A DNA stretch of 64,000 nt from a virus. The first letter of the stretch is position 1. Each line of letters starts with the position of its first letter. The translations under genes and the position numbers were made by a program. This document shows, in pieces, positions 16,265-62,747 of the stretch. Location: IMG/VR virus record IMGVR_UViG_3300037261_000082, positions 36,178-100,177 of that record; one strand, given 5' to 3'. The notes under the pieces were generated by a model that saw only the letters and a list, made by a program, of their open reading frames with translations, made no database searches and had not been told where the DNA came from.

Positions 16265-17638
16265 TTACGCAGCGATTGCTACCTCTGTCCCACAGTCAAT
16301 AACCTTACCCCAGGGCAGAGCACTTCCGAGTCGCTCAACGGCGCGTGGGTCACCCCAGGCACAGAAAAGCGCAGGACTAGCCGGTTCCGGTCCTGGGTCG
16401 CCAATGTACAGGTCAGTACAGCAGACAATCAGGGACGCGTCCGGTTCGTTCTCCTCAACCCACGCAAACGCTGGGCGCATATCAGTACCACCACGCCCAG
16501 GAGCCTTGAACTCAATCTTGTCGCCGTCAATGTACCTGTCCACCTTATTGACGCGGGTGTCACAATAGACGGTTACGACTTCGCTGATTGAGCCATCGTC
16601 CATAGCGGCTTGTACTTCTTCTGCTATCTTGGCGAGTACCGGATCACTCATTGACCCAGAAGTATCGATAATGAACGCGACCTTGTTGATGCCATCGCGC
16701 TGACTGCCCGGTAGGATAGTTCCGGAGTAGGCAAAGCGACGGTTTGGGCGGTTCCAGGTATCAATACGACGGGCACCTGCGTCAATGTATTCACGCAGAA
16801 TGGCACGCCAATCCTGGGTAGGTGTTTTGCGACGTTCAATGATGCTTTCCCAGTGGCCCGGAAGGCTGCCCTGCTTCTTAGCAATGGCTGCTGCCTGACG
16901 AGTTACGACTTCCCACTTGGCGTCTAAGTCAGCCTTCTCGGCTGCGGTGCCAGGGGCGTCTAGTACTTCGCCACAGCCACCATCCTCGCCACATGACTGA
17001 GGTTTGCCAGAACCCTGGCCTTCCTCAGCTTCACCTTCGCCTTCTCCGTCGCCGTCCTCAGAAGGAGAACCTTCACCTTCCTCAGAGCCTTCACCTTCGT
17101 CATCACCAGCTTCATCACCAGCTTCGGAATCAGAGCCGTCGTCACTCTTATCCTCAGAAGCATCCTCAGACTTTTCGTCGTCCTGGGGCTTCTGTTCCTC
17201 TTGCTGCTGCTTCTGCTGTTCCTCAATTTCCAGGATGCGGTAGATTTCCTCAGCCGCCATACCTACAAATTCCTTACGGAACAGAATGCCGTCTGGCAAC
17301 TCAAAGCCTTCGGCTATTAAGTCACCATTGATGGCGTAGTCGCAGGCCTTGTTCCACCGCTGTGGGTCACGCCCAGCGCGGCGGGTAGAGTGATGGCGGG
17401 CATCGTGCTCACTTTCATGGGCCTGCGTACCCAGGATTTTCTTGGGAGGCAGGCTTACAATGAACTCCGGATTGTAGAAGTGCTGTACGGAGTTCGTCGC
17501 CATGGTGGGGAAGTCCCAGGACGGCACCGGGTCAACTTGGGACACCAGCACCGCATAGAACTTCCGTTCCAGGATTAGGGCTGCGCGTGCATTTCGGATC
17601 AGCACGGCAGCCTTGGCTTCCATCTCAACCTTGTCCAT
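16265..17638 (-). CDS. HExxH metallopeptidase-VWA domain protein (DUF2201-like)
   Basis: HESEH, N.ACDYAIN, acidic linker, DTSGS MIDAS motif, GRGGTD, TD. Confidence 0.88.
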   Translation of the reverse strand: MDKVEMEAKAAVLIRNARAALILERKFYAVLVSQVDPVPSWDFPTMATNSVQHFYNPEFIVSLPPKKILGTQAHESEHDARHHSTRRAGRDPQRWNKACDYAINGDLIAEGFELPDGILFRKEFVGMAAEEIYRILEIEEQQKQQQEEQKPQDDEKSEDASEDKSDDGSDSEAGDEAGDDEGEGSEEGEGSPSEDGDGEGEGEAEEGQGSGKPQSCGEDGGCGEVLDAPGTAAEKADLDAKWEVVTRQAAAIAKKQGSLPGHWESIIERRKTPTQDWRAILREYIDAGARRIDTWNRPNRRFAYSGTILPGSQRDGINKVAFIIDTSGSMSDPVLAKIAEEVQAAMDDGSISEVVTVYCDTRVNKVDRYIDGDKIEFKAPGRGGTDMRPAFAWVEENEPDASLIVCCTDLYIGDPGPEPASPALFCAWGDPRAVERLGSALPWGKVIDCGTEVAIAA

Positions 17639-33344: not shown

Positions 33345-33529
33345 TGATCTTTTTAGTTTCACAAGAGAACCCGCACGGCTACTGGTGCCGCAAGTGCGGC
33401 CGAGATCGAGCGTATGCGGAGAAGCATTGCTCATCCGCTAACTGCAAGGAGCGCCGGGACGCGGAGGACCTCGACCGAGAGAATCCGCGCCCGGACTATA
33501 CCCGTTGGAACATGTTTGAGGGGCCATGA
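33344..33529 (+). CDS. Small Cys-rich protein
   Basis: CRKC..C...C; coupled on both sides. Confidence 0.55.
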   Translation: MIFLVSQENPHGYWCRKCGRDRAYAEKHCSSANCKERRDAEDLDRENPRPDYTRWNMFEGP

Positions 33530-34092
33530 CCATTATCACGGTGGCTGGAACAAGTGGCTCTGGCAAGTCACATATCGTCCGTTCTTTCCTAGACTGGGCA
33601 CGTAAGAATGGCAGAGTGACAGAGGAATTTATTGAGGGCCGCACGTCACCTATTGCTTACACGGTTTCCTTGAAAGGCAAGGCTCCAATTTATGTCTTAG
33701 GCTCTTATGAGGTGCCTACCGGGGGTTGTGATACCATTCATGACGTGGCAGATATATTTGACCGGGTTAAGAAGAATCACCGGAATTGTCATGTGGTTTA
33801 TGAGGGTCTGTTTGTGATGAACATGACCAGAGGACCAAAGTTGGTATCAGAGGTAGGTAAGACTCGGCTTTGTGTGTTGCAACTGGATACGCCCTTAGCA
33901 ACGTGCATAGCATCAATTGATGCACGCCGTGCTGAAAAGGGTAAGGATAAGTTGGAGGCTAAGACTAACACGGTTGATAACTATCGTCGCGCTAGAAACT
34001 ACTGTTCTAAAATGCGGGATGCTGGTGCAAGAGTGTTCAAGGTAACTCGTGATGAAGCGTTGCCCAAGATGCTTGAATTGTTGGAGGTGTAG
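33526..34092 (+). CDS. P-loop nucleotide/5-hmdU kinase
   Basis: GTSGSGKS, VLGSY...GGCD, VVYEG, C...I.ARR. Confidence 0.82.
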   Translation: MTIITVAGTSGSGKSHIVRSFLDWARKNGRVTEEFIEGRTSPIAYTVSLKGKAPIYVLGSYEVPTGGCDTIHDVADIFDRVKKNHRNCHVVYEGLFVMNMTRGPKLVSEVGKTRLCVLQLDTPLATCIASIDARRAEKGKDKLEAKTNTVDNYRRARNYCSKMRDAGARVFKVTRDEALPKMLELLEV

Positions 34093-34094
34093 CT

Positions 34095-34364
34095 ATGGAT
34101 AGAACTATTTGGAAAGCAGTTTTGAAGCCAACTGGTATACAGGAACTTGAATTTCCGGTGGGTGCTGAGTTTCTTTGTGCTCATGAACAGCACGAAAAGA
34201 TTTGTATATGGTTTAGAGTTAATCCTGACCAGAAGGTTACAGAGCGCCGCAAAATTGCGATTATTGGCACAGGCCATCCTGCCCCTGCTGATGGGCGTTA
34301 TTTAGGCTCGGCATTTCTTAATGGTGGGTTGCTTGTGCTTCATGTGTTTGCTTGGCCAAGCTAA
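34095..34364 (+). CDS. Conserved small phage protein
   Basis: IWK..L, P.GA..L...Q, W..V.P, GTGH, YLG......V.HVF. Confidence 0.7.
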   Translation: MDRTIWKAVLKPTGIQELEFPVGAEFLCAHEQHEKICIWFRVNPDQKVTERRKIAIIGTGHPAPADGRYLGSAFLNGGLLVLHVFAWPS

Positions 34365-34365
34365 T

Positions 34366-35982
34366 ATGCTGCTTTCTATACGAGGCACAAATGGATGTTT
34401 GGCGGCGGGCACATTAATTGATTGCCCACGAAACCTTATTGAGTATCCTCGAGGAATTCCGATTGAAGATTTAGTTGGGAAGAGATTCCTTACATACAGC
34501 TGGGATTTGTCTAAGGATACGTTTACGCTTTCGCAAGTAACTAAGGTTTGGTGTGTTGGAAAAAGGCGTACTTATCGAGTGGTAGTTTCTGCATACCAAA
34601 CTAAAAACAAAGTTGGGTTTAAGTCAGGAGGTTCAGGTAAGGGCCGGTATTTGCCTCCTTGCGAACTTGTCGGAACTTATGAGCATCTTGTTATGCTTTC
34701 AGATGGCACCTGGAAAAAGCTTGGAGAACTCAAACCAGGTGACTCTCTTAAGTCACTTTATCGCAGGCACACAGACCGAGGAAAGCTTTATTGGACGACA
34801 AACGTAGTAAAAACTCAAGAGAACTATGGAACGCCTTATGGGCCAGTTAAGAATATTTTTACTTACCAAGGTGTAACAAAGCCAGTAAGTGAGCAACAAT
34901 TTGTTTGTGCTCAAGCTCACGGACCACGTCCCGGAACAGAAAAAGAGTTTCAGGTCCACCACAAGAATGAGAATCCTTATGATCATTCTCCTAAAAACTT
35001 AGAGTGGAAGGATACTCATAAGCACCAATCTGATCACCTTAAGGCTCGTAGGGCACTCGGGCCTACAGGTTGGGAAGTTACTGGAGTCCATCCTAGGGGG
35101 ATGGCTGGTAAGAAACATACAGATTCTACCTTAGGTAGAATTGGTGCAGCAAGTATGGAAATACATAAGCAGCGGCGTGATCCTAGGTTTTATGACGATG
35201 TTTGGATGCGTGAGCATTACCCTCGGTGTTCCCTTAGCGAACTTAATAAGATACTGAGAGTAAGTACTGCTTTAATTAAGACCCGACTTAAGAGTTTAGG
35301 TATTAAGCTTGTGGGCTTGCGTGCCCGAGAGGTGCTAAATCACCGCGTTTTAGAAACTCCCGTTTTTGTAGGGAGTGAAAAAGTATACGATATGGAGGTA
35401 GCGCAGACTAAGAACTTTGTAGCAAACGGGATGGTTGTTCACAACAGTGGAAAAACTACAATCGTTAGGGCGATCCTAGATCAGTTCAAGGGCGTCCCCA
35501 TTTATGGTGTGCTCGGTCCACGTCGTCCTGAGGCTTACGCACTGAAGGTTAAGGGTGTGCCCCAGATAGTCTATGTGCTGGGTTCTTACCATACAATTAG
35601 CGGCGGCTGCGATCAGGTTCAACCATATCAACTAATTTTGGAATTGATTGAGAAGTATGCAGCAAAGGGCCACGTGCTATTTGAGGGAGTAATTGTTAGT
35701 TCGAGTTATGGGCGCGTGGGGCGGTTATTAGAGAAGTGGGGCCAGGAAGCAGTAATGGCTTTTCTGACAACGTCCTTAGAGGACTGCCTTAAGAATGTGC
35801 AGAAGCGTCGTAATGCTAGGGATGATGCTAGGGAATTCAATCCGAAGAACACGACGAGTAAGTACAATCAGATCTTGAAGAGTCGCACGACAATAGCTGA
35901 AGCAGGTAAGTTGCGGGTGGTTGACATAGACCCCAACAAGGGTGTGGCCCAGGTGCTTAGTCTCCTGCGAGAAGCGTCATGA
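34366..35982 (+). CDS. P-loop 5-hmdU kinase interrupted by an intein
   Basis: Exteins join as MLLSIRGTNG|SGKTT, giving 188 aa; paralog of 33526-34092. Confidence 0.85.
   Translation: MLLSIRGTNGCLAAGTLIDCPRNLIEYPRGIPIEDLVGKRFLTYSWDLSKDTFTLSQVTKVWCVGKRRTYRVVVSAYQTKNKVGFKSGGSGKGRYLPPCELVGTYEHLVMLSDGTWKKLGELKPGDSLKSLYRRHTDRGKLYWTTNVVKTQENYGTPYGPVKNIFTYQGVTKPVSEQQFVCAQAHGPRPGTEKEFQVHHKNENPYDHSPKNLEWKDTHKHQSDHLKARRALGPTGWEVTGVHPRGMAGKKHTDSTLGRIGAASMEIHKQRRDPRFYDDVWMREHYPRCSLSELNKILRVSTALIKTRLKSLGIKLVGLRAREVLNHRVLETPVFVGSEKVYDMEVAQTKNFVANGMVVHNSGKTTIVRAILDQFKGVPIYGVLGPRRPEAYALKVKGVPQIVYVLGSYHTISGGCDQVQPYQLILELIEKYAAKGHVLFEGVIVSSSYGRVGRLLEKWGQEAVMAFLTTSLEDCLKNVQKRRNARDDAREFNPKNTTSKYNQILKSRTTIAEAGKLRVVDIDPNKGVAQVLSLLREAS
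34396..35445 (+). mobile_element. Intein (350 aa) with an HNH endonuclease
   Basis: Starts CLAAGT; block B GT.EH; VYDMEV; ends FVANGMVVHN before Ser; internal VHHKNENPYDHSPKNL. Confidence 0.93.
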
Positions 35983-38927: not shown

Positions 38928-39960
38928 TCGTGAAGAATTTATAGCCGCGCTGACACAGCTTAAGCCTGCACTTGGCGTGAAGGGTGTAGTGCCTGAGCTA
39001 GCTCACGTCTGGTTTGAGAAGGGTACAGCCCAGGCTTACGATGGTGGCTTTGGCATTAAGATACCTTTCAAGACTGATTTGATTTGTGGAGTGCCTGGAA
39101 CCACTCTCTTAGGCTTGCTCCAGACGTCTGCCTTAAAGCAGGCTACTCTTGAACCTAACGGTAAGGATGCTTTGCAGCTTAAGCTGGGCAAGTCACACAG
39201 CAAGCTGGCTACTCTGGCGGCCGACCGCAAGGTGTGGCCCTTCCCAATTAAGTTGCCCCAGAAGACAGACCCAACAGAACTCAACGAAGAATTCATTGAG
39301 GGTTTGCGCAAGACGCTCTTTATCAAGGCTTCTCCGGCTACGCGGGTTGAGCATTATGGTGTGATGGTGCACCATGTTAAGAATGATTTGCTGCTCTACA
39401 GCACAGATTCAGCTACCATGGTTCAGGTGATGGTTAAGGGGGCCGGTAAGGCGGCAGGCTTTGAGCGTACACTATTCCCGCGTGACTTTGCGGAGCAACT
39501 CGTAGCCCAGGCTCCAGCAGGAGCAACTCTCTACACGCCGGAGGACTGCTTCATAGCTGAAGCGGAGGGTATCTCTCTCTATTCAAACTTGTTGGATATA
39601 TCCTCAGCGGACGACATTGGGGCTATCGTGGACCGGAACCTAGACCGTCACCCAGAAGAGGTACCCCTGCCTGCAGGCTTAGAGGGCGCACTGGCACGGG
39701 CTGAGATATTGGCAGGTACACAGCAGCCTGACATTGAAGCCTCCATAGAGAAAGGTGTTCTAAAGTTGAGTGGGGATTATGCTCTGGGTACATTGCAGGA
39801 AAGTCTGCCGCTAGAGGGTAAGCATCCGGACGCCAAGATACGGTTACGGGCAGGACTAATTCGTCGTGCCCTCGTTCATGCCGATAGTTTCTCATTGACC
39901 AAGGAGTCTTTGTTGTTGTGTGGAACGCCGGGATTTGTCTATTTGGTAGCATCGTTATAA
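38917..39960 (+). CDS. Sliding clamp (Pol III beta-like)
   Basis: About 347 aa; IDREEF..AL, STDS, AL.RA; lies just before the polymerase, with the clamp loader nearby. Confidence 0.65.
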   Translation: MLIDREEFIAALTQLKPALGVKGVVPELAHVWFEKGTAQAYDGGFGIKIPFKTDLICGVPGTTLLGLLQTSALKQATLEPNGKDALQLKLGKSHSKLATLAADRKVWPFPIKLPQKTDPTELNEEFIEGLRKTLFIKASPATRVEHYGVMVHHVKNDLLLYSTDSATMVQVMVKGAGKAAGFERTLFPRDFAEQLVAQAPAGATLYTPEDCFIAEAEGISLYSNLLDISSADDIGAIVDRNLDRHPEEVPLPAGLEGALARAEILAGTQQPDIEASIEKGVLKLSGDYALGTLQESLPLEGKHPDAKIRLRAGLIRRALVHADSFSLTKESLLLCGTPGFVYLVASL

Positions 39961-49909: not shown

Positions 49910-51634
49910 ATGAGTGTTGCTGCCCCCGCCATTTCAAAGACCATCCCCGCTGAGCGCCTTACAGCATTCAGGGATAAGCTTGCGCGCTATGCCGTAGTGG
50001 AGGCTAAGGAGCGTTGCGAGGACTCTCTTATTGAGTTTCTGCAAGCTGCATGGCCTTACATAGATGCTTCTGCCTATCAGCCTTCATGGGCAATAGAAGC
50101 CATGTGCGACCACCTTGAGGCCGTGACATTAGGGCAGATCCCACGTCTACTAATCAACGTTCCACCCCGTTGTGCTAAGACTTCTTTGTGCTCCATTATT
50201 TACCCAGCATGGACTTGGGCTAGATCAGAAATATCCTTTCTGAGTGGCCGTCAAGTGCGGTTTCTGTGTGCTAGTTATGGCCATGCACTTTCCTTAGACA
50301 GTTCTAATAAGTCGCGGCGGCTATTGCAAAGCCCTTGGTACCAAAAACACTGGCCTGGTCAGATTACATTTCAGCCCGATCAAAATACCAAGATGCAATT
50401 TGACAATACAGCCGGTGGTTCACGCATAGCAACTTCTGTTGGGGGAAGTTTGCTCGGAATTGGCGGCGATATTTTGATAGCCGACGATTTGAATAATACT
50501 GAACAGGTGGAGTCTGAAGCTGAGCGGATGACAGTGGCTAATTTCTGGAATGAGTTCCACTCCACGCGCCTTAATGATCCAAAGCGGTCGGCTATTATTG
50601 CTATTCAACAGCGTTTGCATGAGCAGGATGTATCAGGACTAATTCTAGATAGTGATGAGGATTGGACGCATTTAATGATCCCCATGCGTCATGATGAGGC
50701 TCGTCATTGTGTTACCGTTAAGCTTCCTCAATATGACGACAACGAACCTTGGTCTGATCCACGTATTGATGAAGGTGAGTTGATGTGGCCTGAACGGTTT
50801 GGTGAGACTCAGGTGCGGTCTCTCGAAACTGCCCTTGGCCCATATATGGCAGCCGGTCGTCTTCAACAAAGCCCTACGCCGAAAGGTGGTGGTATTATTA
50901 AGCGTGAATGGTGGCAGCCTTGGGATCAACAGGAGGCCCAGCGTTATGGGTTAGAGTGGACCGGGGAGCGTAAGGAGTTTCCACAGTTTGAATTGGTAGT
51001 AGGATCACTCGATACTTCTTATGGCGAGAAGCAGGAGAATGACTACAATGCCTTGACGGTGTGGGGCGTCTGGATTGATCGTAATAAAAATAGACGTGCT
51101 ATGTTGATGTTTGCCTGGGCTAAGCGGTTGCCCCTACACGGCAAGGTAATATCTGCGTTGCCTAATGAAGCCAAGGTCAATTTTGAGCAGCGCCAGCGAG
51201 AACAGTTTGGGTTAATTCAATGGGTTGCGGATACGGCAAAAAGGTATAAGATTCGACGGTTGCTGATTGAGAATAAGACGCGAGGGCGTGATGTGGCTAA
51301 TGAGATCAACCGTCTTTATGCAAGAGAAAATTGGGGTGTAGAATTATTGGATCCGGTTGGGGATAAGGTGTCACGTACTCATTCAGTTGTGCCCTTGTTT
51401 ACCGATAACGTGATTTGGGCACCGGATACAAAATGGGCAGATGCTGTAATTGCAAATAGTCAAAGTTTTCCGAAGGCTGCGCATGACGATTTGCACGATA
51501 CCGTAACTCAGTTTCTCAATTGGTCCCGGGAGAACGGAATTTTGTTGAGGGGTGATGAGATGAGTGCTGCACTAGAAGACGAACAAGCGTATAAGCCGCC
51601 TCAAGATTCAGTAGCACGAATGTATGGGGTCTAG
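49910..51634 (+). CDS. Terminase large subunit
   Basis: INVPPRCAKT, G.GGD..IADD, QRLHE.D, QQ.P.P..G, DT, IE.K, FP...HDD..D. Confidence 0.93.
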   Translation: MSVAAPAISKTIPAERLTAFRDKLARYAVVEAKERCEDSLIEFLQAAWPYIDASAYQPSWAIEAMCDHLEAVTLGQIPRLLINVPPRCAKTSLCSIIYPAWTWARSEISFLSGRQVRFLCASYGHALSLDSSNKSRRLLQSPWYQKHWPGQITFQPDQNTKMQFDNTAGGSRIATSVGGSLLGIGGDILIADDLNNTEQVESEAERMTVANFWNEFHSTRLNDPKRSAIIAIQQRLHEQDVSGLILDSDEDWTHLMIPMRHDEARHCVTVKLPQYDDNEPWSDPRIDEGELMWPERFGETQVRSLETALGPYMAAGRLQQSPTPKGGGIIKREWWQPWDQQEAQRYGLEWTGERKEFPQFELVVGSLDTSYGEKQENDYNALTVWGVWIDRNKNRRAMLMFAWAKRLPLHGKVISALPNEAKVNFEQRQREQFGLIQWVADTAKRYKIRRLLIENKTRGRDVANEINRLYARENWGVELLDPVGDKVSRTHSVVPLFTDNVIWAPDTKWADAVIANSQSFPKAAHDDLHDTVTQFLNWSRENGILLRGDEMSAALEDEQAYKPPQDSVARMYGV

Positions 51635-51838: not shown

Positions 51839-54800
51839 TTAGTGTTGAGTAGATCGATAATCCCAAGACCATGATGCGCGATATGGAAAACAACGGCGTG
51901 TAGTAGCCCCTTGGTTCCGCTGAATTTCATTCATCGCATTGATCTGAGTGAGCGTCACAATCGGCCTTTGATGTTGAAAGTTATAGGTTAGCGCGTTCAG
52001 TTGTCGAGATAGTGGCTCTTTGGGCGCTTACATGGCCCGAGATATTCCCAGCCGCGCCGTGCAAGTTCTTGTGGCGTAATCGGCTGTGCCTCTCCGATGC
52101 AATGCCACACATTTCCAAGCCACTCTGCTATTCCAGGCTTGCTTGATCGCTCAGAATGAAGCCAATGGTAGGCATCCATATTGAGCATGTCGGCGGGTGG
52201 CCAGGTTCCTGGCATCGTGTGCATTGCGGTTTTGCGCAGCGACATTTGGTGGCCTCTACTGTTCCAAAGCTTCACGCGCGATCTTGCGCATTTTCCACGT
52301 CTGAGGCTCATCAACAATCGCGGTGAGGACCGCTCGCAACCGCTGACATTCAACTATGGCGTCAGCGAGCGTCATTCGGCCATATCTGATCTGTGCTTCT
52401 GCGGCTTCCATTGCCCGTCCTCAGTTGTTCGGTTTGAATAAGCGGAATCCTGTGACAACTAATTGCCGCAACAAAAGTCGCAGCACGATTGATCGGGTTT
52501 GCAGTAGGCGCGGTTCGGTTTTTCCTCAGTCGGGCCACCCGCGTCGTTGTTCTCGATCAGGTCCGCTATGGCCTCAGCCTCAGTCGCCCCGGTGCCGGTC
52601 ACGCCTTCCTCCATCCCGTCATAGTACGCCAGCCAATCAAAGCGGCGGATCGGGATCGGCGGATAGACATACTCGGTGACGATTTTCACGGCGGGCCTAT
52701 TTCTCCAACGCGGCGATTGCCGCATCTGCATAAATAAAACACAGGTCGCAAGCCGCAACCGGATTGTGTGGGTAGGCGCGGCGCTGCTCAGGCGTGTTCA
52801 TTGGCCACGGCTTCCCTTGGCAGTCGGGCCGCTTTGCCCAAATCGCTCGGGCGACCATTTCTCGCGGCGTGAACTTTGATTCCGTGCTCTCGTCGCCTGT
52901 TGCACTTGTAGTGTGCGAGGACAACATTTCCCTCTCCCATATGGCCTCCGTCGCGGCGACGCTTAACGTGCTCAAAGGTTGCAAAGTCTCGCGTTGGCAT
53001 TCCGTTCGGACGGTGCTTGAGCTTCATTGGCTTCTGGCACCAGTGGCAAAGACTGCGTTGCTGGTCGAAAAGGCGCTGTCGCCAAGCATTCTTTCGTGCA
53101 GCAGTCGGAGACATTCCGTGCCTATTCTGACTTTGGAGGGGTGAGGAATTTTTCTAGGATGTAAGCCTCGATGGTTACGGAGGCGGCGGGAGAATATCCC
53201 CTGGCCTTGATCTCGATAGATTGGGTGCTGGACGGGTTTTGCAAAGCGGCCCGAACCACAGTTTTCAGCTTTTCATATTCTTCCTGCTCATAGCTCATGT
53301 TTGCGGGCCTAATCCTTCAACGCGGCTTCAACGTCCGCGAGCTTCTGTTCGACATGCGAAATCCAAGCATCGATGGCCTCAAGAACGGTTGGCTTCGGCT
53401 CGCAACTCCAGACCGTGCAGGCGCAAACTGGCTTGTCGGTTTTGGCCAGTCCGTCACAGACGATTGACGCAAGCCAATGGTCGCGCAGGACGCGGCGCAA
53501 TGGGGTAAGGGCGGCTTTGTGCTTTTCCCATGCGGCGTCGATCATCTCGTTTTCATCGGGGGTTAAGGGGCGTTCCATTTCGGGCCTTTACTGACTGGCT
53601 AGAGGGTTGAAGATCGGCGGGTAGCTGCCGAGCGGCATTCCGGCGGCGGTAAGGCCAATGATTTCCCCATCGCGGTAGACGACTGACGGTTCCAGTTCCG
53701 ACACCCACAAGCCGAGCAATGTACGTAATGTACATTCATCGCGCCGCATCTTGGCCTCGACAGCTTGCTCGATGATGCGTTTCACGGCGGCCTCTATTGA
53801 CAAGTTTGGGGTTGGTTTTTGAGATAGCCTCTTACGTTCTCGGCGCGAGATCGGTAATCGTTAGCCTGCTCCATCAATTTTGCGGCTTGGACCTCAAGGC
53901 GCTTTGCGGCATCCTCTAGGTATTGAGCGCGAAACTGCCAATCCTCTCGTTCTGTCATGGCTGCGGCCTACTCTGACAATTCGCGCATGGCTATCATGGC
54001 GGCGCGGGCTAGGGTGCGAGCGTATCGCTGCGCACTTTCATCTTCCTCGGCCAGTCCGCAAACCGGCAAGGTGCTGCCCGTGTAGCGAGCGCGGTTGATC
54101 GCATTGGCAACCTTGTCCACGGCAGCATCGGTGATGGTCTGCATTGGCGGCCTCTATATCCAGATTGTTCAACGCATTTCGTCGTAGTCGAGAAAGTAGC
54201 TTTCGCCGCACACATCGCAGCGGTAGCGTTCGCCCTCAAAGCCGCCGCCGACTTCCTTGAGGTTTGGACACTGCGACCAGTGACCCAAGCCCTGCGGATG
54301 GTTCGGTATCGGCGTAAACACCGGCTCGCACCCCGCACTCTTTTTCGCTGGATCGCCTTTGATCGCCATCGGGGGGGGGGTAATCCTTCAATCGTGTCCG
54401 TGTTGTTTTTGGTACTCGGCAACTTGCCGAAGAATAGCGAACGCGCCATCCGATATGGATGTGCCGGGCCAAGACAAGAGTGCTGCCACCATCGCAAGAC
54501 GGAAGCTTTCTGGCCCGTATAGGTCGGGGGCGATGCCGGGCTTACGCTTTTTCATCGGGGCTCCTTTGACAATCTGTTAGGCGTAGATAACGAGAGCGAC
54601 TAGACCGACAAAAACAGCGGAGCAAAGTGCGGCGGTAAATGATCCTAGCGCCCATCCGTTCACGCGGAACGTCCAGTGACTTGTCGAGTAGTCCGCGATG
54701 CTGCTGATGGCCGCCGTCGCCACGCCTACCATTAAACTGCCGACGACCCAAACTATCCAGAGTTTTACAGGCAACGGCATGGCGGGCCTTATTTGACAAA

Positions 54801-55159
54801 ATCGGTTAGGGACTTTTCCACTTCGGGCCGCGACATGATTGTGGGCTTCCCGTAGAGGATCGCTTCCGCATCAATAATTACGTCCCACATCGCGCTCATA
54901 CTTCCTACCGTAGCTGCTTTGCGTCGGGCGCGGTTGATGTGATCGACTAATTCTTGATCGGTCATGGCTTGATAATCTGTTAAGCGACTCGATGGGGTAC
55001 AGGTTTGGGCGGCGCGGCAGGTCCCGGCGGAATGCCGGTCACGTCAGCGACGGCAAGATTGATGGCCGCATGAATTTCGTATTCAAGCTGATCGCGCAGC
55101 AAACCCTTGGCATATCGGTCGGCCACTTTCTTCGCCTCGGCTTGCGCGTGGAATGCCAT
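51839..55159 (-). other. Leftward array of 16 short genes with AGGCC(C)GC junctions
   Basis: ORFs: 54980-55159, 54789-54965, 54577-54780, 54388-54555, 54169-54369, 53968-54144, 53794-53958, 53588-53785, 53309-53578, 53122-53298, 52788-53114, 52697-~52887, 52459-52689, 52256-52411, 51997-52245, 51839-51958. Confidence 0.8.
52788..53114 (-). CDS. Small HNH endonuclease (array member)
   Basis: CHWC..ATFEH...R.DGG....N.VLAH..CN. Confidence 0.75.
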   Translation of the reverse strand: MSPTAARKNAWRQRLFDQQRSLCHWCQKPMKLKHRPNGMPTRDFATFEHVKRRRDGGHMGEGNVVLAHYKCNRRREHGIKVHAARNGRPSDLGKAARLPREAVANEHA

Positions 55160-55234
55160 TGCTGCGGCCTCCACTAACTATCTAGACATACTGTGTTCCG
55201 AATTACGGAATAGCTTAAGCAACGTAGGTTACGC

Positions 55235-55263
55235 TTGATTTGTTAACCTGTAAAGCCTATTAT
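55235..55263 (+). promoter_or_regulatory. Sigma70 promoter giving a probably leaderless transcript
   Basis: TTGATT-N17-TATTAT, then 6 nt, then ATG at 55270; no SD sequence. Confidence 0.65.
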
Positions 55264-55269
55264 CGTTAA

Positions 55270-55836
55270 ATGGCTGTTGAAGACACCAGATCATACCTAA
55301 ATCCATTGAAACCTAGTTGGAGTGAAGTCTCTCAACGAGAGAAGCTTACTGGAGAAATATACTGTGCAGATCAGCGCGAAGCATTATTGCGATCTTTACG
55401 AAAAGGCAGTGTTGTTGAGGTAGTAGAAACTTTCTTATTGGCTAAAACAGTTGGACGTGTTGATGTTAGAAAACGTGACTTGCTGGCAATTGTTGATCAA
55501 ATTGAAAACCGAAAAGGAGTTATTCGAGAACTTGCTACAGGACATCAATCTAATATACCCAAGCAATGGCGTCAAATGCAGGCGCGGGCGTTTGCTCTTA
55601 TTTCTAGTTCTGCACGAGGAAAGAACTCCGCAGTTAATGGTAAACAATCTAAAGGCAGGCCCCATAAAACATATCATGAAGACCAACTTTCTGTTATGGA
55701 AAAAGTTTGGTTTAGTCGGCGGTACAAGACAATTGCGGAACGTATGTCTTATCTAGGCGGAATTGGGATTAAGGTAAAACGTGGGTGGATGTATAGTCGT
55801 TTTGGAACCGTTGAAAATCCCCGAGTAAAACTTTAG
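55270..55836 (+). CDS. Serine-resolvase-fold protein with substituted catalytic residues
   Basis: LLRSLRKGSVVEV, RDLLAIVDQIE.RKGVI, GRP hinge and HTH-like tail; YARVS replaced by YLNPL and LDRL by TFLL. Confidence 0.65.
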   Translation: MAVEDTRSYLNPLKPSWSEVSQREKLTGEIYCADQREALLRSLRKGSVVEVVETFLLAKTVGRVDVRKRDLLAIVDQIENRKGVIRELATGHQSNIPKQWRQMQARAFALISSSARGKNSAVNGKQSKGRPHKTYHEDQLSVMEKVWFSRRYKTIAERMSYLGGIGIKVKRGWMYSRFGTVENPRVKL

Positions 55837-55845
55837 GAGTTTGCC

Positions 55846-56184
55846 TTGCGCGCCATAGTCTGCGGAAGCCGCAACTACAAGAATTGGGAACTGCTTTATC
55901 GCGTTCTCGATGGCCTTGGAATTACCCACGTCATCGAAGGCGGCGCGCGTGGGGCGGATAGATTGGCGAGGGAGTGGGCACAGTCTCGGCTCATTCCTAT
56001 GACGACATTTGATGCGAATTGGGACACTCACGGGAAAGTCGCAGGACAGATTCGCAATCAGCAAATGCTCGATGAAGGAAAGCCTGAATTAGTGGTGGCC
56101 TTCCCCTTGGAGAAAAGCAGCGGAACATGGGATATGGTTCGCAAGGCCAGAGCCGCTGGCGTCAAAGTTGAACTGGTTGAATAA
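55846..56184 (+). CDS. YspA/SLOG-family (DUF2493-like) protein
   Basis: VCGSRNY, IEGGARGAD.LA..WA, AG.IRN..ML, AFP, GT.DM. Confidence 0.88.
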   Translation: MRAIVCGSRNYKNWELLYRVLDGLGITHVIEGGARGADRLAREWAQSRLIPMTTFDANWDTHGKVAGQIRNQQMLDEGKPELVVAFPLEKSSGTWDMVRKARAAGVKVELVE

Positions 56185-59100
56185 TTAGGAGCGCACCGTG
56201 CATACTTGGAACCCACCCGTAGAAATGACAACAACCGCGCCGCAGGGCGTGACAGAATTAAAAACCATCATGCGCGACGATAATAAAATGGTAGGCGTAA
56301 CAAAACTTGGCCGTACCATTCGTTCTGCCCTGTCCGAACTACGCGAAATCCACACCGATCTACCTTTTGCGATATTGACCGTAATTTTATCTGATGAACT
56401 GAATAAATAGGAGATTTTAGATGGCATGGAAATGTAAGGAATGCGGGAAGCATAGCGGCGGGCCGTACTGCGATGAATGTGGAGCGCCACCGTCCTGCAA
56501 ATCAGGCAAGAGATAAAGGAGTTTGCATGACGATAGACAGCACGATGGTTCCGGCGGGTGGCACTCGCAAGGGCGATAAGGTTTACGACGCGCGAGGCCG
56601 ACTGATTGAAATCTATGAGGGCGAGTGGCGCGTCGTGGTTGATGGTGGCCGGTCAGGCTGGTGGCGTTTCAACGAACACTACGACCGCGACGGCTACTGC
56701 GACAATCCCGCCCGTGGGTACTGAATATAGAGGAGATTTTCGTGTCTGCATTGGATGCGCGCCAACAGGCTTTCCGAGAAATGGATCGGGGGGTGTTCAA
56801 CATCCTCAAACTGGCGCTCGCCTATGACATGACCGATGATCTGTTTATCCAAGTCGCACACGACATTAGAACCACGCTGCCGCCGAACGCCCGCAAGGAG
56901 ATGCTGGCCTACACAAAAGAGATTGAGATTTTTGTGAGTGGCCGCCAATGGCAGAGGGGATGGTGGTTTTGCAAAAAGACAACTTGGAAGCACATCAATG
57001 CCGAGATCACCTTCAATCCGTACAAGGCAAGTTTGAGTTGCTGGACTGATCCAAAAGAACCGGGCGGAATTGTCTGCTTTCAATAGTCACAAGAGGAGAA
57101 TTGGCGTGCTTATCGACGATCCCAACAGTGCGAGCGGCAAGCGCGTCATCGCGGACAACCCAGGCTGCATGGCACCAGACGGCGGCGAATGCTGTCCTCA
57201 ATATCTAGCCCTCTCGCAAGAAAACGAGAGGATGCGTGAAATTCTAATTTGGCTTGATCGAGTTGGCGGACTTGGACTGGAAACTCATGGGCGCATTCGC
57301 AAGGCGCTCGGTTTCAAATCCGCTGCTGACGATTGAATATAGAGGAGCAAACGAATGTCTGACCTTGAGGACGGTCTAGTCGCCGCAAAAAAGGCTTTGA
57401 TTGATTGTGGTTTCTGTGGTGCTGGTGAACATGGCGCAGGCGATCCTGAGATTAACTCCATCGATAGGGTTATTGGTGCGCTGCGTTCTGGTCGTCGCAC
57501 AGCAACACTTGAAATGATGGGTTTCCCAGATGCGGCATCTTTTGCAAAAGACCCAACTCAATGAGTGTGCCAATGGCCGTCAAGGTAGTCTGGGTGCTTA
57601 CGTCGATTTGGTCGGTTCACAATGCTCCTGAGCATCACTATCTACAGTTCGCTTCTCACGACGAATGTAGAGACGCTGCAATTCAAGCAATCGAAGTGGG
57701 CGGCGCAAAGTTTGCGTTCTGCACTGAGGGATACGCGACGCCACTTCAATATCTGCCGTATGAACGCTGAATAAATAGGAGATTGTCGTGTCACCTGGCG
57801 AGAAGCGGCGGCGTAAAGCAAAGCGAGAGCGCGAGCAAGCAGCCTATGCCGCCGCAGTATCAGCGTTGCCGACCGGCTCTTGCTGTTGCAACTGCGCTCA
57901 TCGCGGTACGATGCCACTTTCGCGCAAACCGATCTGCACGCTCGACAGCGATTTTGCCGGCTACACAGTGGTTGAGTTGATGCACGTCTGTCCGCGATGG
58001 ACTACTAAATAAACAGGAGCGACCGTGGCTGAGTATCGTTGGATTGGAGACTTCGGCGGATACGGTTGGGCTATCTGCCCCACATGCAGCGGTCGTGGTC
58101 ACTGGATTGGAGTAGCCACAACAACGGCTGCTGATTGTCGTACCTGTCACGGCAACGGAAAGGTGTCATGGGGGCGCTGGCCGAACTACAATCCAACGTC
58201 AGAGCATGATGAGGGAACGAGAATGGTCCCTCCGCCATTGGCGATAACAAAATAGGAGTTTTTCGTGTGCGACTGCAAAATCTATTGCCAAGATACAGGC
58301 AACGGAGATTGCCGCTATATGGTCAAGTGTTCGAAGGGAACGCCGAAGTCTGACTTTGAGCATGTGCCGATGAAGGCCGCGATCGATGATACAGTCTACT
58401 GCATCCGCTGTGGACGGGAACTAGGTCTAGCGAATTAGGAGCAACCAGCATGGCCGTCGATTTTTGGACCGATGTTGACCTCTACGAGCCGACTTGCGTC
58501 TTGCGCCGGTTCGGCATTGGAGATGTTCTTGAGCAGCAATGGCGCAAAGCAAAGATAGGACGGCTCGGCCACGTCGAGGGATTTTATTATGAATGGCGTC
58601 CGGTGCCGCACGTTTACGGTGAACCAAAGTCAGAATAGGAGATTGAAAAATGATCTATGTGCACCCCACCAAACCGCGCGGATTAATCGCCCGTTATGCG
58701 ATGGCACCGCTGGTGTTTTTGCAAGTCCTCTACCTGCATCCGAAGAATGGCATTGGCTATGCCGCTCGTTGGGCGCGGCAGAGCACCATCGTTCCCAATG
58801 GCGTGTTCCCAAATTAGGAGCCGACCATGAGTATGGCAGAATATGAAATCCCGCGCCGCGTCTGCCTTGATCGAATGACGGAAGCCGAGTTGGCAATTCG
58901 CCAAGCCGTGATTGAAGTCGAGAAGGTTGGTGCAGACGTTCGACTAACTGACGCCGTGATATTGCTATCGGCTGCACAGACGCGCGTAGCTGACTACGTT
59001 GATCGTGTCCCCGGCCTACGCACTGTCCCGCAACAGCTTCAAGAGAATTAGGAGCGCAGACATGAGCCGCAGCGATACCGCGATAGTGGCCTACGCTATT

Positions 59101-59678: not shown

Positions 59679-59894
59679 ATGGATTTCAAATCCGTAACTA
59701 GTAGCAATATTGATGCTGTAGCTCATGATCCGAAAACAAACACTCTCCATGTGCGTTTCAAAGGTGGCGGTGTTTATGCGTATCAGGGTGTTGATGCAGA
59801 AAAACATGCAGCCCTGATGAATGCTGCTTCAGTTGGTTCATATTTGCATGCCCACATCAAGGGCAAACATGCACACTCGAAGATGGATGGGTAA
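59679..59894 (+). CDS. KTSC domain protein
   Basis: V.SSNI.AV.HD....L.V.F..G..Y.Y.GV.......L..A.SVGSY....IK. Confidence 0.9.
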   Translation: MDFKSVTSSNIDAVAHDPKTNTLHVRFKGGGVYAYQGVDAEKHAALMNAASVGSYLHAHIKGKHAHSKMDG

Positions 59895-60152
59895 GTGTTA
59901 ATGAGAAAAAATGGCTGGTCTGCAAGTGATGAAGCTTGGTTGTACACACATTATTTGACCGCTTCAACACCTCTTGCTCAAAAAGTATTGAAACGAAGCA
60001 GCACAGCTATCTCAGCACGCGCAGTTAAGTTAGGGCTTAACAAGAAAAGCTATCTTGCTAAATTGCGGATGATTGATGCGCAGGATCGTCTAAGCACGCT
60101 TCATCGTCCTAGGGTAGGTAGGTTCTATCAGTCAAGTTTTGAATTGAGCTAA
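59895..60152 (+). CDS. Small HTH-like protein
   Basis: WS..DE..L...Y, L.RS..AI..RA.KLGL. Confidence 0.6.
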   Translation: MLMRKNGWSASDEAWLYTHYLTASTPLAQKVLKRSSTAISARAVKLGLNKKSYLAKLRMIDAQDRLSTLHRPRVGRFYQSSFELS

Positions 60153-60191: not shown

Positions 60192-62747
60192 ATGAGCAAC
60201 GTCTTCCCCCTAGACACTGGCCAGAACTATCGTCAACCCGGTCCTGCACCCTTAACGGGGCAGGACATTACTGTTATTACTGAGGGTGATGGTGCACCTC
60301 AGTTTGACCAGGAGACGGGCACAACCCAGATTGAATTGCCGGATGGTGAAGTCACTATCAGCTTTGGTCCCCCTGAGCAGCCCAAGAAGGACTCCAAGTT
60401 TGACGATAACCTAGCCAATAAGCTGTCTGAGGCTGAGTTGTCTGTCATAGCTGAGAAGCTCTTGATGGGCATAGAGCAGGATAACCAGTCCCGTTCGGCG
60501 TGGCTTGAGAATATGAGTGCAGGCATTAGTCTGCTAGGCTTGGAGATTAAGAACCCTCGTGGTGCTGCAGCGTCTGGCGCTACGCCAGCTGAGGGAACTA
60601 GTACGGTTGATCACCCTTTGCTCTTAGAGGCTGTGTTACGGTTCCAGGCTAATGCTAGGGGTGAGTTGTTGCCTTCCGACGGCCCAGTGAAGGTGCGTAA
60701 TGACGGCGAAGCCAATAGTCTTTCTGATCGTCTGTCCCAGGCCTTAGAAAAGGATATGAATCATTATCTGACTAAGGTTGCGAAAGAGTACTATCCAGAT
60801 ACGGACCGGATGCTGCTGATGCTAGGCTTCAGCGGCATTTCTTTTAAGAAGGGCTATCACGATCCAATCAAGCGGCGTCCTGTTATTGCCTCTATTGATG
60901 CGAAGGATTTGATTGTCTCTAATGCAGCAACTGATATTGATGGCGCTGGGCGCGTAACTCATCGTATCATGATGCGTCCTTCCGTATTAAAACGCATGAT
61001 GTTATTAGGTGCTTACCGTGACATTGCGTTGCCTGTGGCTGGTCTACCTCAAATCAAGAATCCTGTTGAGGCCAAGATTGACGTTATTCAAGGTATTGCC
61101 CCGCCTACGTATGTAGAACCTACAGACCAGGATAGAGAACTGTACGAGTGCTACTGTGAAATAGAGGTGCCGGGCTTTGAGCACGAAATGGATGGTGAAG
61201 CGACAGGCTTGCCACTGCCATATAAGGTCACGATAGATCATGAAGCGAGACGCATTCTTGAGGTCCGCCGGAATTGGACTGAGGGTGATGACTTCTGTCT
61301 TCCTCGTAATCGCATCATTGCTTATGTGTTTATTCCTGGTCTTGGCTTCTATGGCATTGGGTTGCTCAACATTCTGGGTAATGCTACGAAAGCGGTTACA
61401 GCCGCATGGCGGCTGATGATTGATGCGGGCATGTTTGCCAACTTCCCAGGCTTCCTTTACCTTAAGCAACTCGCCAAGCAACTTACCAATCAGTTCCGTA
61501 TTCCTCCTGGTGGTGGAATGCCTATTGATACCATGGGCAACGACATTCGTGCGTCAGTTATGCCCTTGCCGTACAAGGATCCAAGTGCCGTATTCATTCA
61601 GTTAATTGAGAATATTGCCACCACAGCCCAGCGGGTTGGTGGTACTGCTGAAATGCAGATAGGCGAAGGCAAGCAGGATGCCCCTGTGGGCACAACGCTG
61701 GCGCTAATTGAGCAGGCTACGAAGCTTATGTCAGCCGTGCATAAGCGACTGCACCAAGCCCAGGGCCAAGAGTTTGATATGTTGAAGTCTTTGTTGATGG
61801 AGGATCCCGAGGCGTTGTGGCGACATAACAAGAAGTCTGCTGTGTTGGCCCAACTCACGGCGGAAATGGGGTTGCAGCCCCTTACAAACGCCCAGGACGG
61901 TGCAGAGCTAAGGCAACGGGCATTGTTCCTTACTGCCTTGCAGGACTGCGAGCTAGTCCCGGCTGCCGACCCCAATACAAGTAGCCAGACCGAACGCTAC
62001 CTGAAGGTGGTGGCCATGCGGCAAATGGCTGCCACGAACCAGAATATCGACTTGAATAAGGTTGATGAGAAAGCCTTCCACACGATGGGCGTGGACAATC
62101 CGGAAGACTTCTTTAAGCCACCACCGGATCCAAATGCACCACCGCCCCCGCCACCGCCAGAACAAGTTACGGCTATGGCTACAATGACGGCTGCGCAGGC
62201 TAGGCTGACGGATAGCCAGACGAAAGCAATGGAGGCTAAGACCAAGGCTGCCACGGCCCAGTCCGACGCTGCCATCAAGGCACAAGAGTTGCAGTCTAAG
62301 GAGAAGATTGCTTCGCTGGGTGTGGCCCGTGAGTTGGTCATCCACAATGACGATAAGGCTATGGCTGAACGACAGCTGGCTCAGGAGCATATGGGTCGTG
62401 CTGCTGACCGGGCGCACGAAGCACAACAGAGTGGGGCTGATCGTGCCCATCAGGTACAACAGACGGGGGTTGATAATAATCAGCGCTCGGCCGATAGGTT
62501 GCATGCCCTTGCTCTTGCCCATATGGGGCATCAGGCTGCATTCCGGCAGAAGCAGAGTGATCAGCAGCATGGTATAGCAACAGCTGTACTAGGACATCAG
62601 GTTACGTCACAACAGAAGGCTGCCGATCGTCAAAGTAGTATGATGCAACAGGGCGTAGCGCAAGGTCATGAAGCTACACAGAGTGAGTTGGACCGTCAGC
62701 ATCAGTTGGCGCTGGCAGCGGCTAAGCCTGATGGAGTTGCACCATGA
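60192..62747 (+). CDS. Portal protein
   Basis: HPLLLEA..RFQA.A..EL.P..GPV, PG.GFYG.GL, LIDAG...N.PG, APVGTT.ALIE; long coiled-coil tail; downstream of terL. Confidence 0.85.
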   Translation: MSNVFPLDTGQNYRQPGPAPLTGQDITVITEGDGAPQFDQETGTTQIELPDGEVTISFGPPEQPKKDSKFDDNLANKLSEAELSVIAEKLLMGIEQDNQSRSAWLENMSAGISLLGLEIKNPRGAAASGATPAEGTSTVDHPLLLEAVLRFQANARGELLPSDGPVKVRNDGEANSLSDRLSQALEKDMNHYLTKVAKEYYPDTDRMLLMLGFSGISFKKGYHDPIKRRPVIASIDAKDLIVSNAATDIDGAGRVTHRIMMRPSVLKRMMLLGAYRDIALPVAGLPQIKNPVEAKIDVIQGIAPPTYVEPTDQDRELYECYCEIEVPGFEHEMDGEATGLPLPYKVTIDHEARRILEVRRNWTEGDDFCLPRNRIIAYVFIPGLGFYGIGLLNILGNATKAVTAAWRLMIDAGMFANFPGFLYLKQLAKQLTNQFRIPPGGGMPIDTMGNDIRASVMPLPYKDPSAVFIQLIENIATTAQRVGGTAEMQIGEGKQDAPVGTTLALIEQATKLMSAVHKRLHQAQGQEFDMLKSLLMEDPEALWRHNKKSAVLAQLTAEMGLQPLTNAQDGAELRQRALFLTALQDCELVPAADPNTSSQTERYLKVVAMRQMAATNQNIDLNKVDEKAFHTMGVDNPEDFFKPPPDPNAPPPPPPPEQVTAMATMTAAQARLTDSQTKAMEAKTKAATAQSDAAIKAQELQSKEKIASLGVARELVIHNDDKAMAERQLAQEHMGRAADRAHEAQQSGADRAHQVQQTGVDNNQRSADRLHALALAHMGHQAAFRQKQSDQQHGIATAVLGHQVTSQQKAADRQSSMMQQGVAQGHEATQSELDRQHQLALAAAKPDGVAP

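Follow-up and report, generated by a model that had tools for sequence, protein, structure and literature searches.

What does a serine resolvase do once its serine has been lost? This question is raised by an open reading frame (ORF) in the window, the 64,000-nucleotide stretch of DNA analysed here, which constitutes the last 64 kb of virus record IMGVR_UViG_3300037261_000082, a complete genome of 100,177 bp with 127-bp terminal repeats. The original prediction described the product as a resolvase homolog with a rewritten active site, and proposed that it was a repurposed DNA-binding factor, a regulator of the neighbouring gene arrays, or an enzyme using a different nucleophile. As had been claimed, the ORF is intact, encoding 188 amino acids on the plus strand from an ATG at 55270 to a TAG at 55834-55836; we refer to its product as the pseudo-resolvase. 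The gene lies between terminase and portal, where two opposed arrays of small genes run leftward (51997-55159) and rightward (55270 to ~59500), respectively. Features defining the locus are as follows.

49910-51634: large terminase gene.
54980-55159, minus strand: first gene of the opposed leftward array, with its ATG at 55159.
55160-55269, no strand: divergent intergenic region, placed from gene positions; presumed control region and presumed binding target.
55270-55836, plus strand: pseudo-resolvase ORF, a small serine recombinase homolog without the serine, 188 aa.
55846-56184, plus strand: next gene of the operon, a YspA/cpYpsA-related SLOG domain protein (PF10686, E 2.5e-15).
60192-62747: SU10-type portal gene.

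The phage encodes its own DNA polymerase, a DnaB-type helicase and an SbcC-like protein, and has no detectable serine or tyrosine integrase; its nearest cultured phages, as judged by TerL, are at most 37% identical. It recurs in peat metagenomes from 2018-2025 with identical sequence in this region: from 54700 to 56400, contigs of four peat runs made in different years match the window with 100% identity, and the phage population is very stable. Terminase and portal are ~8.5 kb apart, the gap consisting of the two opposed arrays of mostly unannotatable small genes; such a break within a packaging module is unusual and has the look of an island of accessory or early genes. Also identified were three HNH-type endonuclease genes (52788-53114 and 16265-17638 on the minus strand, 34321-35982 on the plus strand), one inside the leftward small-gene array (52788-53114) and one combined with a small-terminase-like region. 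The SLOG domain encoded immediately downstream of the pseudo-resolvase is predicted to bind a nucleotide ligand. A further ORF of 188 amino acids, at 33526-34092, was considered as a paralog of the pseudo-resolvase and rejected as kinase/AAA-like; its weak match to the 5-hmdU DNA kinase family PF18748, which at E 1.6e-5 stays under the Pfam cut-off, is a hint that thymidine may be hypermodified in the phage DNA.

Used as a single query, the pseudo-resolvase returned nothing useful from Pfam, PHROG, NCBIfam, PADLOC or the PDB sequences, and PF00239 matched neither this protein at E<=10 nor any other in the phage. Homology emerged only once a family profile had been built. A word-indexed search recovered six relatives with 44-75% identity, and a profile of these six, compared with 1.84 billion cluster representatives, identified 211 at E<=1e-3, including 94 at E<=1e-10. 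Against PDB sequences, the family HMM found gamma-delta resolvase (1gdt, E 1.2e-3) and Gin (E 3e-3), both collinear with the query, and a profile-profile comparison with the active invertase PinE of the E. coli e14 element using hhalign (probability 94.3%, E 9.6e-8, 163 columns) spanned PinE residues 2-180 of 184, that is, from end to end. PF00239 itself reached E 0.005 with just 2 of 137 relatives.

We generated an AlphaFold2 model from a 137-sequence alignment of the family (pLDDT 95.2, pTM 0.75), which superseded a poor earlier model built from 7 sequences (pLDDT 62). Its elements follow the order b1, aA, b2, aB, b3, aD, b4, a 30-residue helix, a linker and three short helices. In a Foldseek search of the PDB, Tn3 and gamma-delta resolvases ranked first (E 1e-5, probability 1.00), and in an exhaustive VIA-align comparison with 48,161 chains serine recombinases occupied all of the top 14 places, with Z-scores of 11.6 for Sin (rmsd 2.5 A over 102 residues), 11.5 for Tn3 and 11.2 for gamma-delta, down to 5.6 for TnpX, the lowest of the 14; below these, only generic alpha/beta folds were found. 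Structural neighbours in BFVD and the ESM Atlas were likewise resolvases only. Structure prediction against resolvases had been put forward as a check on the original prediction, and the similarity that it revealed is strong (Z 11.6). The same residue equivalences were obtained from three independent alignments, namely family HMM to 1gdt, hhalign to PinE, and the fold matches, with scores well beyond those expected by chance, and by sequence and predicted structure the ORF at 55270-55836 encodes a true, full-length homolog of the small serine recombinases. The parts of the protein are predicted as follows.

55285-55557, plus strand: residues 6-96, resolvase-type alpha/beta catalytic-domain fold (b1-aA-b2-aB-b3-aD-b4), from the alignments and the AlphaFold2 model.
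55558-55647, plus strand: residues 97-126, long helix E, from the AlphaFold2 model and the family census.
55654-55662, plus strand: arm motif G129-R130-P131, from the alignments, conserved in 98, 82 and 86% of the family, respectively.
55678-55803, plus strand: residues 137-178, three-helix homeodomain-like helix-turn-helix (HTH) domain with pLDDT >90, from the AlphaFold2 model and the alignments.

Each of these parts has a counterpart with a role in DNA binding by recombinases. Helix E is the dimerisation helix of resolvases; in the pseudo-resolvase it carries a conserved M103/A107/I111 stripe, six Lys/Arg residues and no acidic residues. The G-R-x arm of resolvases and invertases binds the minor groove, and G129-R-P is its equivalent. 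The HTH domain, which also aligns with homeodomains, contains a recognition helix in which R171-G-W-M-Y-S-R-F-G179 pairs with V-S-T-L-Y-K-R-F-P of PinE, the profile-profile match taking in the recognition-helix motif LY+RF. The core strands and helices, GRP hinge and HTH-like tail RGWMYSRFG that had been read from the sequence as retained were recovered in the AlphaFold2 model and the alignments to PinE and 1gdt. Also observed across the family is an insertion of 7-8 mostly basic residues after strand 3, represented in the window protein by the loop G62-R-x-D-x-R-K-R69, and the protein as a whole is very basic (predicted pI 10.3).

The catalytic residues have fared differently from this scaffold. 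Residues Y9-L10-N11-P12-L13 align with resolvase Y-A/V-R-V-S, placing Asn11 at the position of gamma-delta Arg8 and Leu13 at that of the nucleophile Ser10, and E53-T-F-L-L-A-K59 aligns with K-L-D-R-L-G-R, such that Phe55, Leu56 and Lys59 occupy the positions of Asp67, Arg68 and Arg71. These substitutions, Asn and Leu for the catalytic Arg and Ser and ETFLLAK for KLDRLGR, are exactly those first noted by eye, and were reproduced by HMM, hhalign and fold matches alike. A census of alignment columns over 137 family members extended them to the whole family. Serine occurs at the Ser10 position in 0 of 137, the column being either absent or occupied by Leu, Ile, Phe or Tyr and followed by His, Pro, Leu or Val; the equivalents of Asp67, Arg68 and Arg71 are likewise retained in 0 of 137 members, with Phe/His and Leu at the first two positions and Pro/Glu/Asp at the third. 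Only the Arg8 position is divided, between Arg (47% of members) and Asn (40%). Activity as a classical recombinase is very unlikely for the pseudo-resolvase on this evidence, as had been proposed, with the catalytic residues replaced family-wide.

Conversely, many positions outside the catalytic set are strongly conserved in the same census, including Q22 (95%), R44 (89%), L57-A58 (90%), W147 (87%) and G179 (89%), together with G46, V51, E87, T90 and G91. Alignment of homologs had been suggested as a way of finding invariant residues, and relaxed selection among them as grounds for refutation; what the alignment revealed, in a family of 211 clusters, was strong conservation of non-catalytic positions. 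Since family members are mutually only 22-45% identical, this pattern indicates long-term purifying selection on a function other than phosphoryl transfer. Loss of the active site is a trait of the family and not a one-off decay of the window protein. Two hydroxyl residues, T90 and S94, are conserved in ~90% of members and align with a D/G-x-x-S/T motif preceding helix E that is also present in real resolvases; they are most readily seen as ancestral structural residues and not as a new active site.

Phylogenetic reconstruction of the family (a quick maximum-likelihood tree by IQ-TREE) identified two clades, separated with an SH-aLRT of 99 and comprising an Asn-type (60 rows, including the window protein) and an Arg-type (76 rows). 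No curated family in Pfam, PHROG or NCBIfam covers these proteins, and all members looked up are metagenomic sequences. When compared with 50,697 phage records by tblastn, the window protein had no match, and more distant family queries identified a single member, in MW202785.1; P0017 and alignment A4 found no match among viral contigs and alignment A5 none among genome contigs, hence no host or prophage was found. The member in MW202785.1 (CDS 1272-1844) is automatically annotated as 'transposon gamma-delta resolvase' and belongs to the family without the catalytic serine, an annotation which needs correction. MW202785.1 also encodes a tyrosine integrase (39290-39784), placing the family in temperate phages as well as in phages without a detectable integrase. 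A literature search, confined to the searchable library, found no description of a serine-less resolvase family. From the sequences surveyed, these proteins would represent an undescribed, widespread and serine-less branch of the small serine recombinases, and an old, conserved phage family.

We also examined the genomic setting of the gene. The pseudo-resolvase gene heads the rightward array at the point where the two arrays diverge. In all five loci obtained, namely the window, L002 (a complete virus of 63.9 kb), L003 (MW202785.1), L004 and L006, the rightward genes begin with the family gene, which a short divergent intergenic region separates from a leftward array of tightly packed small genes. 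In MW202785.1 the leftward genes run towards the tyrosine integrase, which puts the family gene in the cro-like position of an immunity region. The original suggestion of a regulator of the arrays is consistent with the place of the gene at their divergence point, the link between protein and arrays being one of position only. Two elements were identified in the intergenic region.

55235-55263, plus strand: promoter-like element, TTGATT, a 17-nt spacer and TATTAT, with its end 6 nt from the ATG.
55226-55249, no strand: inverted repeat AGGTTA-N12-TAACCT of 24 bp from a dyad search, overlapping the -35; candidate operator.

The promoter-like -10 lies 5-7 nt before the ATG, and no Shine-Dalgarno sequence precedes the family gene in 4 of 5 loci (the window and 3 of the 4 others); the genes downstream in the window carry a perfect AGGAG 6-8 nt before the start in 9 of 9 cases. 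The mRNA of the pseudo-resolvase gene may accordingly be leaderless or nearly so. Furthermore, the window and L006 share a conserved stretch of ~30 nt immediately upstream, consisting of TAACCTGT, 4 nt, CCTATTNTCG and then AAATGGC, despite a great difference in base composition between the two family genes. A start lacking a Shine-Dalgarno sequence, the adjacent promoter-like element and the upstream block shared with L006 together fit a first gene that travels with its own control region.

The candidate operator has the size of a resolvase dimer site and is present in one copy in the genome, with a score at chance level; its half-sites number 24 each, equal to expectation, and the dyad is not conserved in L006. 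A search for paired dyad sites of the res, hix or gix kind returned only this one chance-level 6-N12-6 arrangement, a search that divergent sites could escape, and neither repeated dyads nor iterons were found around the gene or in the rest of the genome. Separately, the divergent intergenic region contains a small palindrome, TTCCG-AATTA-CGGAA (55199-55213), and a perfect 14-nt palindrome, TCTTTTGCAAAAGA, lies within the rightward array at 57538-57551.

From the retained DNA-binding parts and the position of the gene we infer, with moderate confidence, that the pseudo-resolvase is a non-catalytic DNA-binding protein which regulates the divergent early region. The original idea of repurposing for DNA binding or regulation remains the best reading of the locus. 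The protein would be derived from a small serine recombinase, without catalytic activity but with those parts kept which sit on DNA, namely the fold scaffold, helix E, the GRP arm and the HTH domain. It would perform the steps that precede chemistry in a resolvase, dimerising via helix E and placing its HTH domains in successive major grooves, and its G-R-P arm in the minor groove, of a specific site. This site would lie in the divergent control region beside its own gene, and its occupation would regulate the two opposed early-gene arrays, the protein's own promoter included. TnpR bound at res autoregulates and represses the divergent tnpA and tnpR promoters (PMC7157771), and the analogous position of the pseudo-resolvase gene favours a regulator, in which only the repressor half of the action of Tn3/gamma-delta TnpR at res would have been retained. 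There is also a precedent for such a conversion in MrpR of SPbeta, a phage repressor whose tyrosine-recombinase fold is no longer catalytic (PMC10516654). Several observations count against this reading. The only dyad of the 6-N12-6 kind in the intergenic region is at chance level and absent from L006; heading an early operon fits many early functions besides that of a regulator; the GIY-YIG fusions described below demonstrate use of the module by a nuclease, and not for transcription control, in some of the relatives; and a recent arrival from a foreign source, suggested by the composition of the gene (GC 0.41, with a GC3 of 0.28 compared with 0.52-0.68 in its neighbours), would be odd for a core regulator of a resident phage. 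A second low-GC island in this genome of ~50% GC, at 59679-60152, is formed by a KTSC-domain gene (PF13619) and the ORF that follows it, with GC3 of 0.36-0.37.

A C-terminal domain of ~90 residues belonging to MUG113/T5orf172, of the GIY-YIG superfamily, was identified in 18-19 of the 137 family members, with its hallmark motifs intact. The fusions are scattered over both clades of the tree, each beside unfused siblings, so that many separate gains or losses of the nuclease must have occurred; over the whole module, the closest fused relative shows 44% identity. ICP1 Odn, in which T5orf172 is coupled to a DNA-binding domain borrowed from elsewhere, is a site-specific nuclease (PMC8263062), and with T5orf172 fusions known to act in this way the dead-resolvase module would be able to act as a DNA-targeting device. 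By this analogy the fusions lend independent support to the idea that the module binds DNA specifically. No description of a dead resolvase as the targeting module of T5orf172 was found in the literature searched, and these recurrent natural fusions are of practical interest as nature's version of the chimeric recombinase and nuclease designs made in the laboratory.

These fusions raise the possibility that DNA targeting within a site-specific nuclease or selfish-element system is the task of the dead resolvase, which would provide site recognition for the GIY-YIG (T5orf172) domain, and that the stand-alone form either protects the target as an immunity protein or recruits a nuclease in trans, for example a phage HNH enzyme. 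Such a system would account for the 18 of 137 members with C-terminal MUG113/T5orf172 and intact motifs, for the occurrence of fused and unfused siblings side by side in both clades, with Odn as a precedent, and for the HNH gene of the opposed array (52788-53114). The low GC3 of the gene was also counted in its favour, mobile genes often being compositional outliers. Conversely, a MUG113 or T5orf172 domain is absent from the window protein and from the whole phage at E<=1, and unfused forms, which make up ~86% of the family, are well conserved, which argues that they are functional in their own right. Free-standing homing endonuclease genes, moreover, do not typically take a conserved first place in an operon beside a divergent promoter, and we consider this explanation unlikely for the window protein.

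A non-catalytic architectural, synapsis or origin-binding role, in which the protein loops or pairs DNA for replication, packaging, nucleoid remodelling or host takeover, appears to us quite doubtful. Such a role would make use of helix E and the catalytic-domain scaffold, which provide dimer and tetramer contacts in resolvases and are retained here, and would suit both a very basic protein and a gene in the early or accessory region that separates terL from portal. It is opposed by the lack of repeated dyads or iterons, both around the gene and genome-wide, nor does anything relate specifically to replication or packaging, and transcriptional control is the simpler explanation of a divergent-promoter position found in 5 of 5 phages.

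The relationship of the pseudo-resolvase to the gene cassettes of the arrays was examined through the hexamer TAGGAG, which had been interpreted as a cassette junction, the stop codon of the ORF being described as the first of the array.

55834-55839, plus strand: TAGGAG, in which the stop codon TAG of the ORF overlaps the AGGAG ribosome-binding site of the next gene.

As stated, the TAG of the ORF falls within this hexamer, whose AGGAG is the Shine-Dalgarno sequence of the next gene, which starts with TTG at 55846. TAGGAG is over-represented in the window (47 sites versus 27 expected), and each of nine plus-strand sites between 55834 and 59054 (the eight others lying at 56186-59054) is found 6-8 nt upstream of a start codon. 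Their positions identify these sites as Shine-Dalgarno sequences, the initial T or TA in many cases also forming part of the stop codon of the preceding gene, and the proposal that they are binding sites of the protein is contradicted by this placement and by their lack of dyad symmetry. Exact words of 14-18 nt shared by cassette ends also consist of a gene 3' end and a Shine-Dalgarno sequence without dyad symmetry, and are therefore unlike serine-recombinase sites. These words, found at the 3' ends of otherwise unrelated cassettes, include one of 16 nt across the two arrays (53121-53136 on the minus strand and 58624-58639 on the plus strand), and two of 18 nt (56399-56416 and 57767-57784) and 14 nt (56722-56735 and 57334-57347). 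As possible mosaic boundary sequences, they could promote the exchange of cassettes via short homology; no variant joints of cassettes were found in peat metagenome contigs from the four runs.

A more speculative combination of these elements, which we regard as improbable, is that the dead resolvase forms a modular targeting or synapsis platform, a dimer or tetramer that would mark sites and hand them to a nuclease (a fused GIY-YIG, or one acting in trans such as the HNH enzyme of the opposed array), driving exchange or homing of early-gene cassettes that share the 14-18 nt words. If true, this would be a recombination system made from a recombinase that no longer cuts. That the protein is instead an active recombinase with a different nucleophile, acting on the cassette junctions of the two arrays, is hardly credible, for all its complete resolvase architecture, the ~90% conservation of T90 and S94 and the exact terminal words shared by cassettes of both arrays, given that the nucleophile and all four phosphate-activating positions are non-polar or non-equivalent (the polar pocket of Arg8, in this clade, Ser10, Asp67, Arg68 and Arg71 having become Asn, Leu, Phe, Leu and Lys/Pro, with Arg8 still present in 47% of the family as a whole), that T90 and S94 match the ancestral D/G-x-x-S/T motif of real resolvases, and that the junctions are stop codons with Shine-Dalgarno sequences, 6-8 nt before starts and devoid of dyad symmetry, for which no variant joints occur in peat contigs.

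Serine recombinases are textbook enzymes and important tools for genome engineering, and a conserved natural clade in which the whole active site has gone and the scaffold for DNA recognition remains is absent from Pfam, PHROGs, NCBIfam and the literature searched. Among known systems, Tn3/gamma-delta TnpR resembles the pseudo-resolvase in length and architecture (alpha/beta fold, helix E, G-R-x arm and C-terminal HTH), and in a gene that adjoins a divergent control region, from which TnpR represses both promoters (PMC7157771). Unlike TnpR, the pseudo-resolvase lacks the Ser nucleophile, Asp67, Arg68, Arg71 and, in its clade, Arg8; it escapes PF00239 and carries the basic insert of 7-8 residues after strand 3, and it resides in a phage early region, with no res-like dyad array found, rather than in a transposon. 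The invertases Hin, Gin and PinE are similar in that PinE provided the best profile-profile match and in that Gin and PinE are also phage- or prophage-borne, whereas they are active enzymes flanked by an invertible segment with hix or gix sites and an enhancer, features none of which is present here. With ICP1 Odn and other T5orf172/GIY-YIG fusion nucleases the comparison extends to those relatives that join the same nuclease type to a borrowed DNA-binding module (PMC8263062); the window protein differs in having no nuclease domain, and the targeting module of the family is a dead resolvase. Finally, MrpR (YopR), the master repressor of the Bacillus prophage SPbeta, is likewise a recombinase fold that serves, minus catalysis, as a phage DNA-binding repressor (PMC10516654), the role that we infer here, while its tyrosine-recombinase origin and unrelated fold, as opposed to the serine-recombinase fold of the pseudo-resolvase, make the likeness one of analogy only. 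If the members of this family are indeed regulators, they would constitute a serine-recombinase counterpart of the tyrosine-recombinase-derived MrpR, and would suggest that the repressor side of TnpR can survive alone as a phage early-gene switch.
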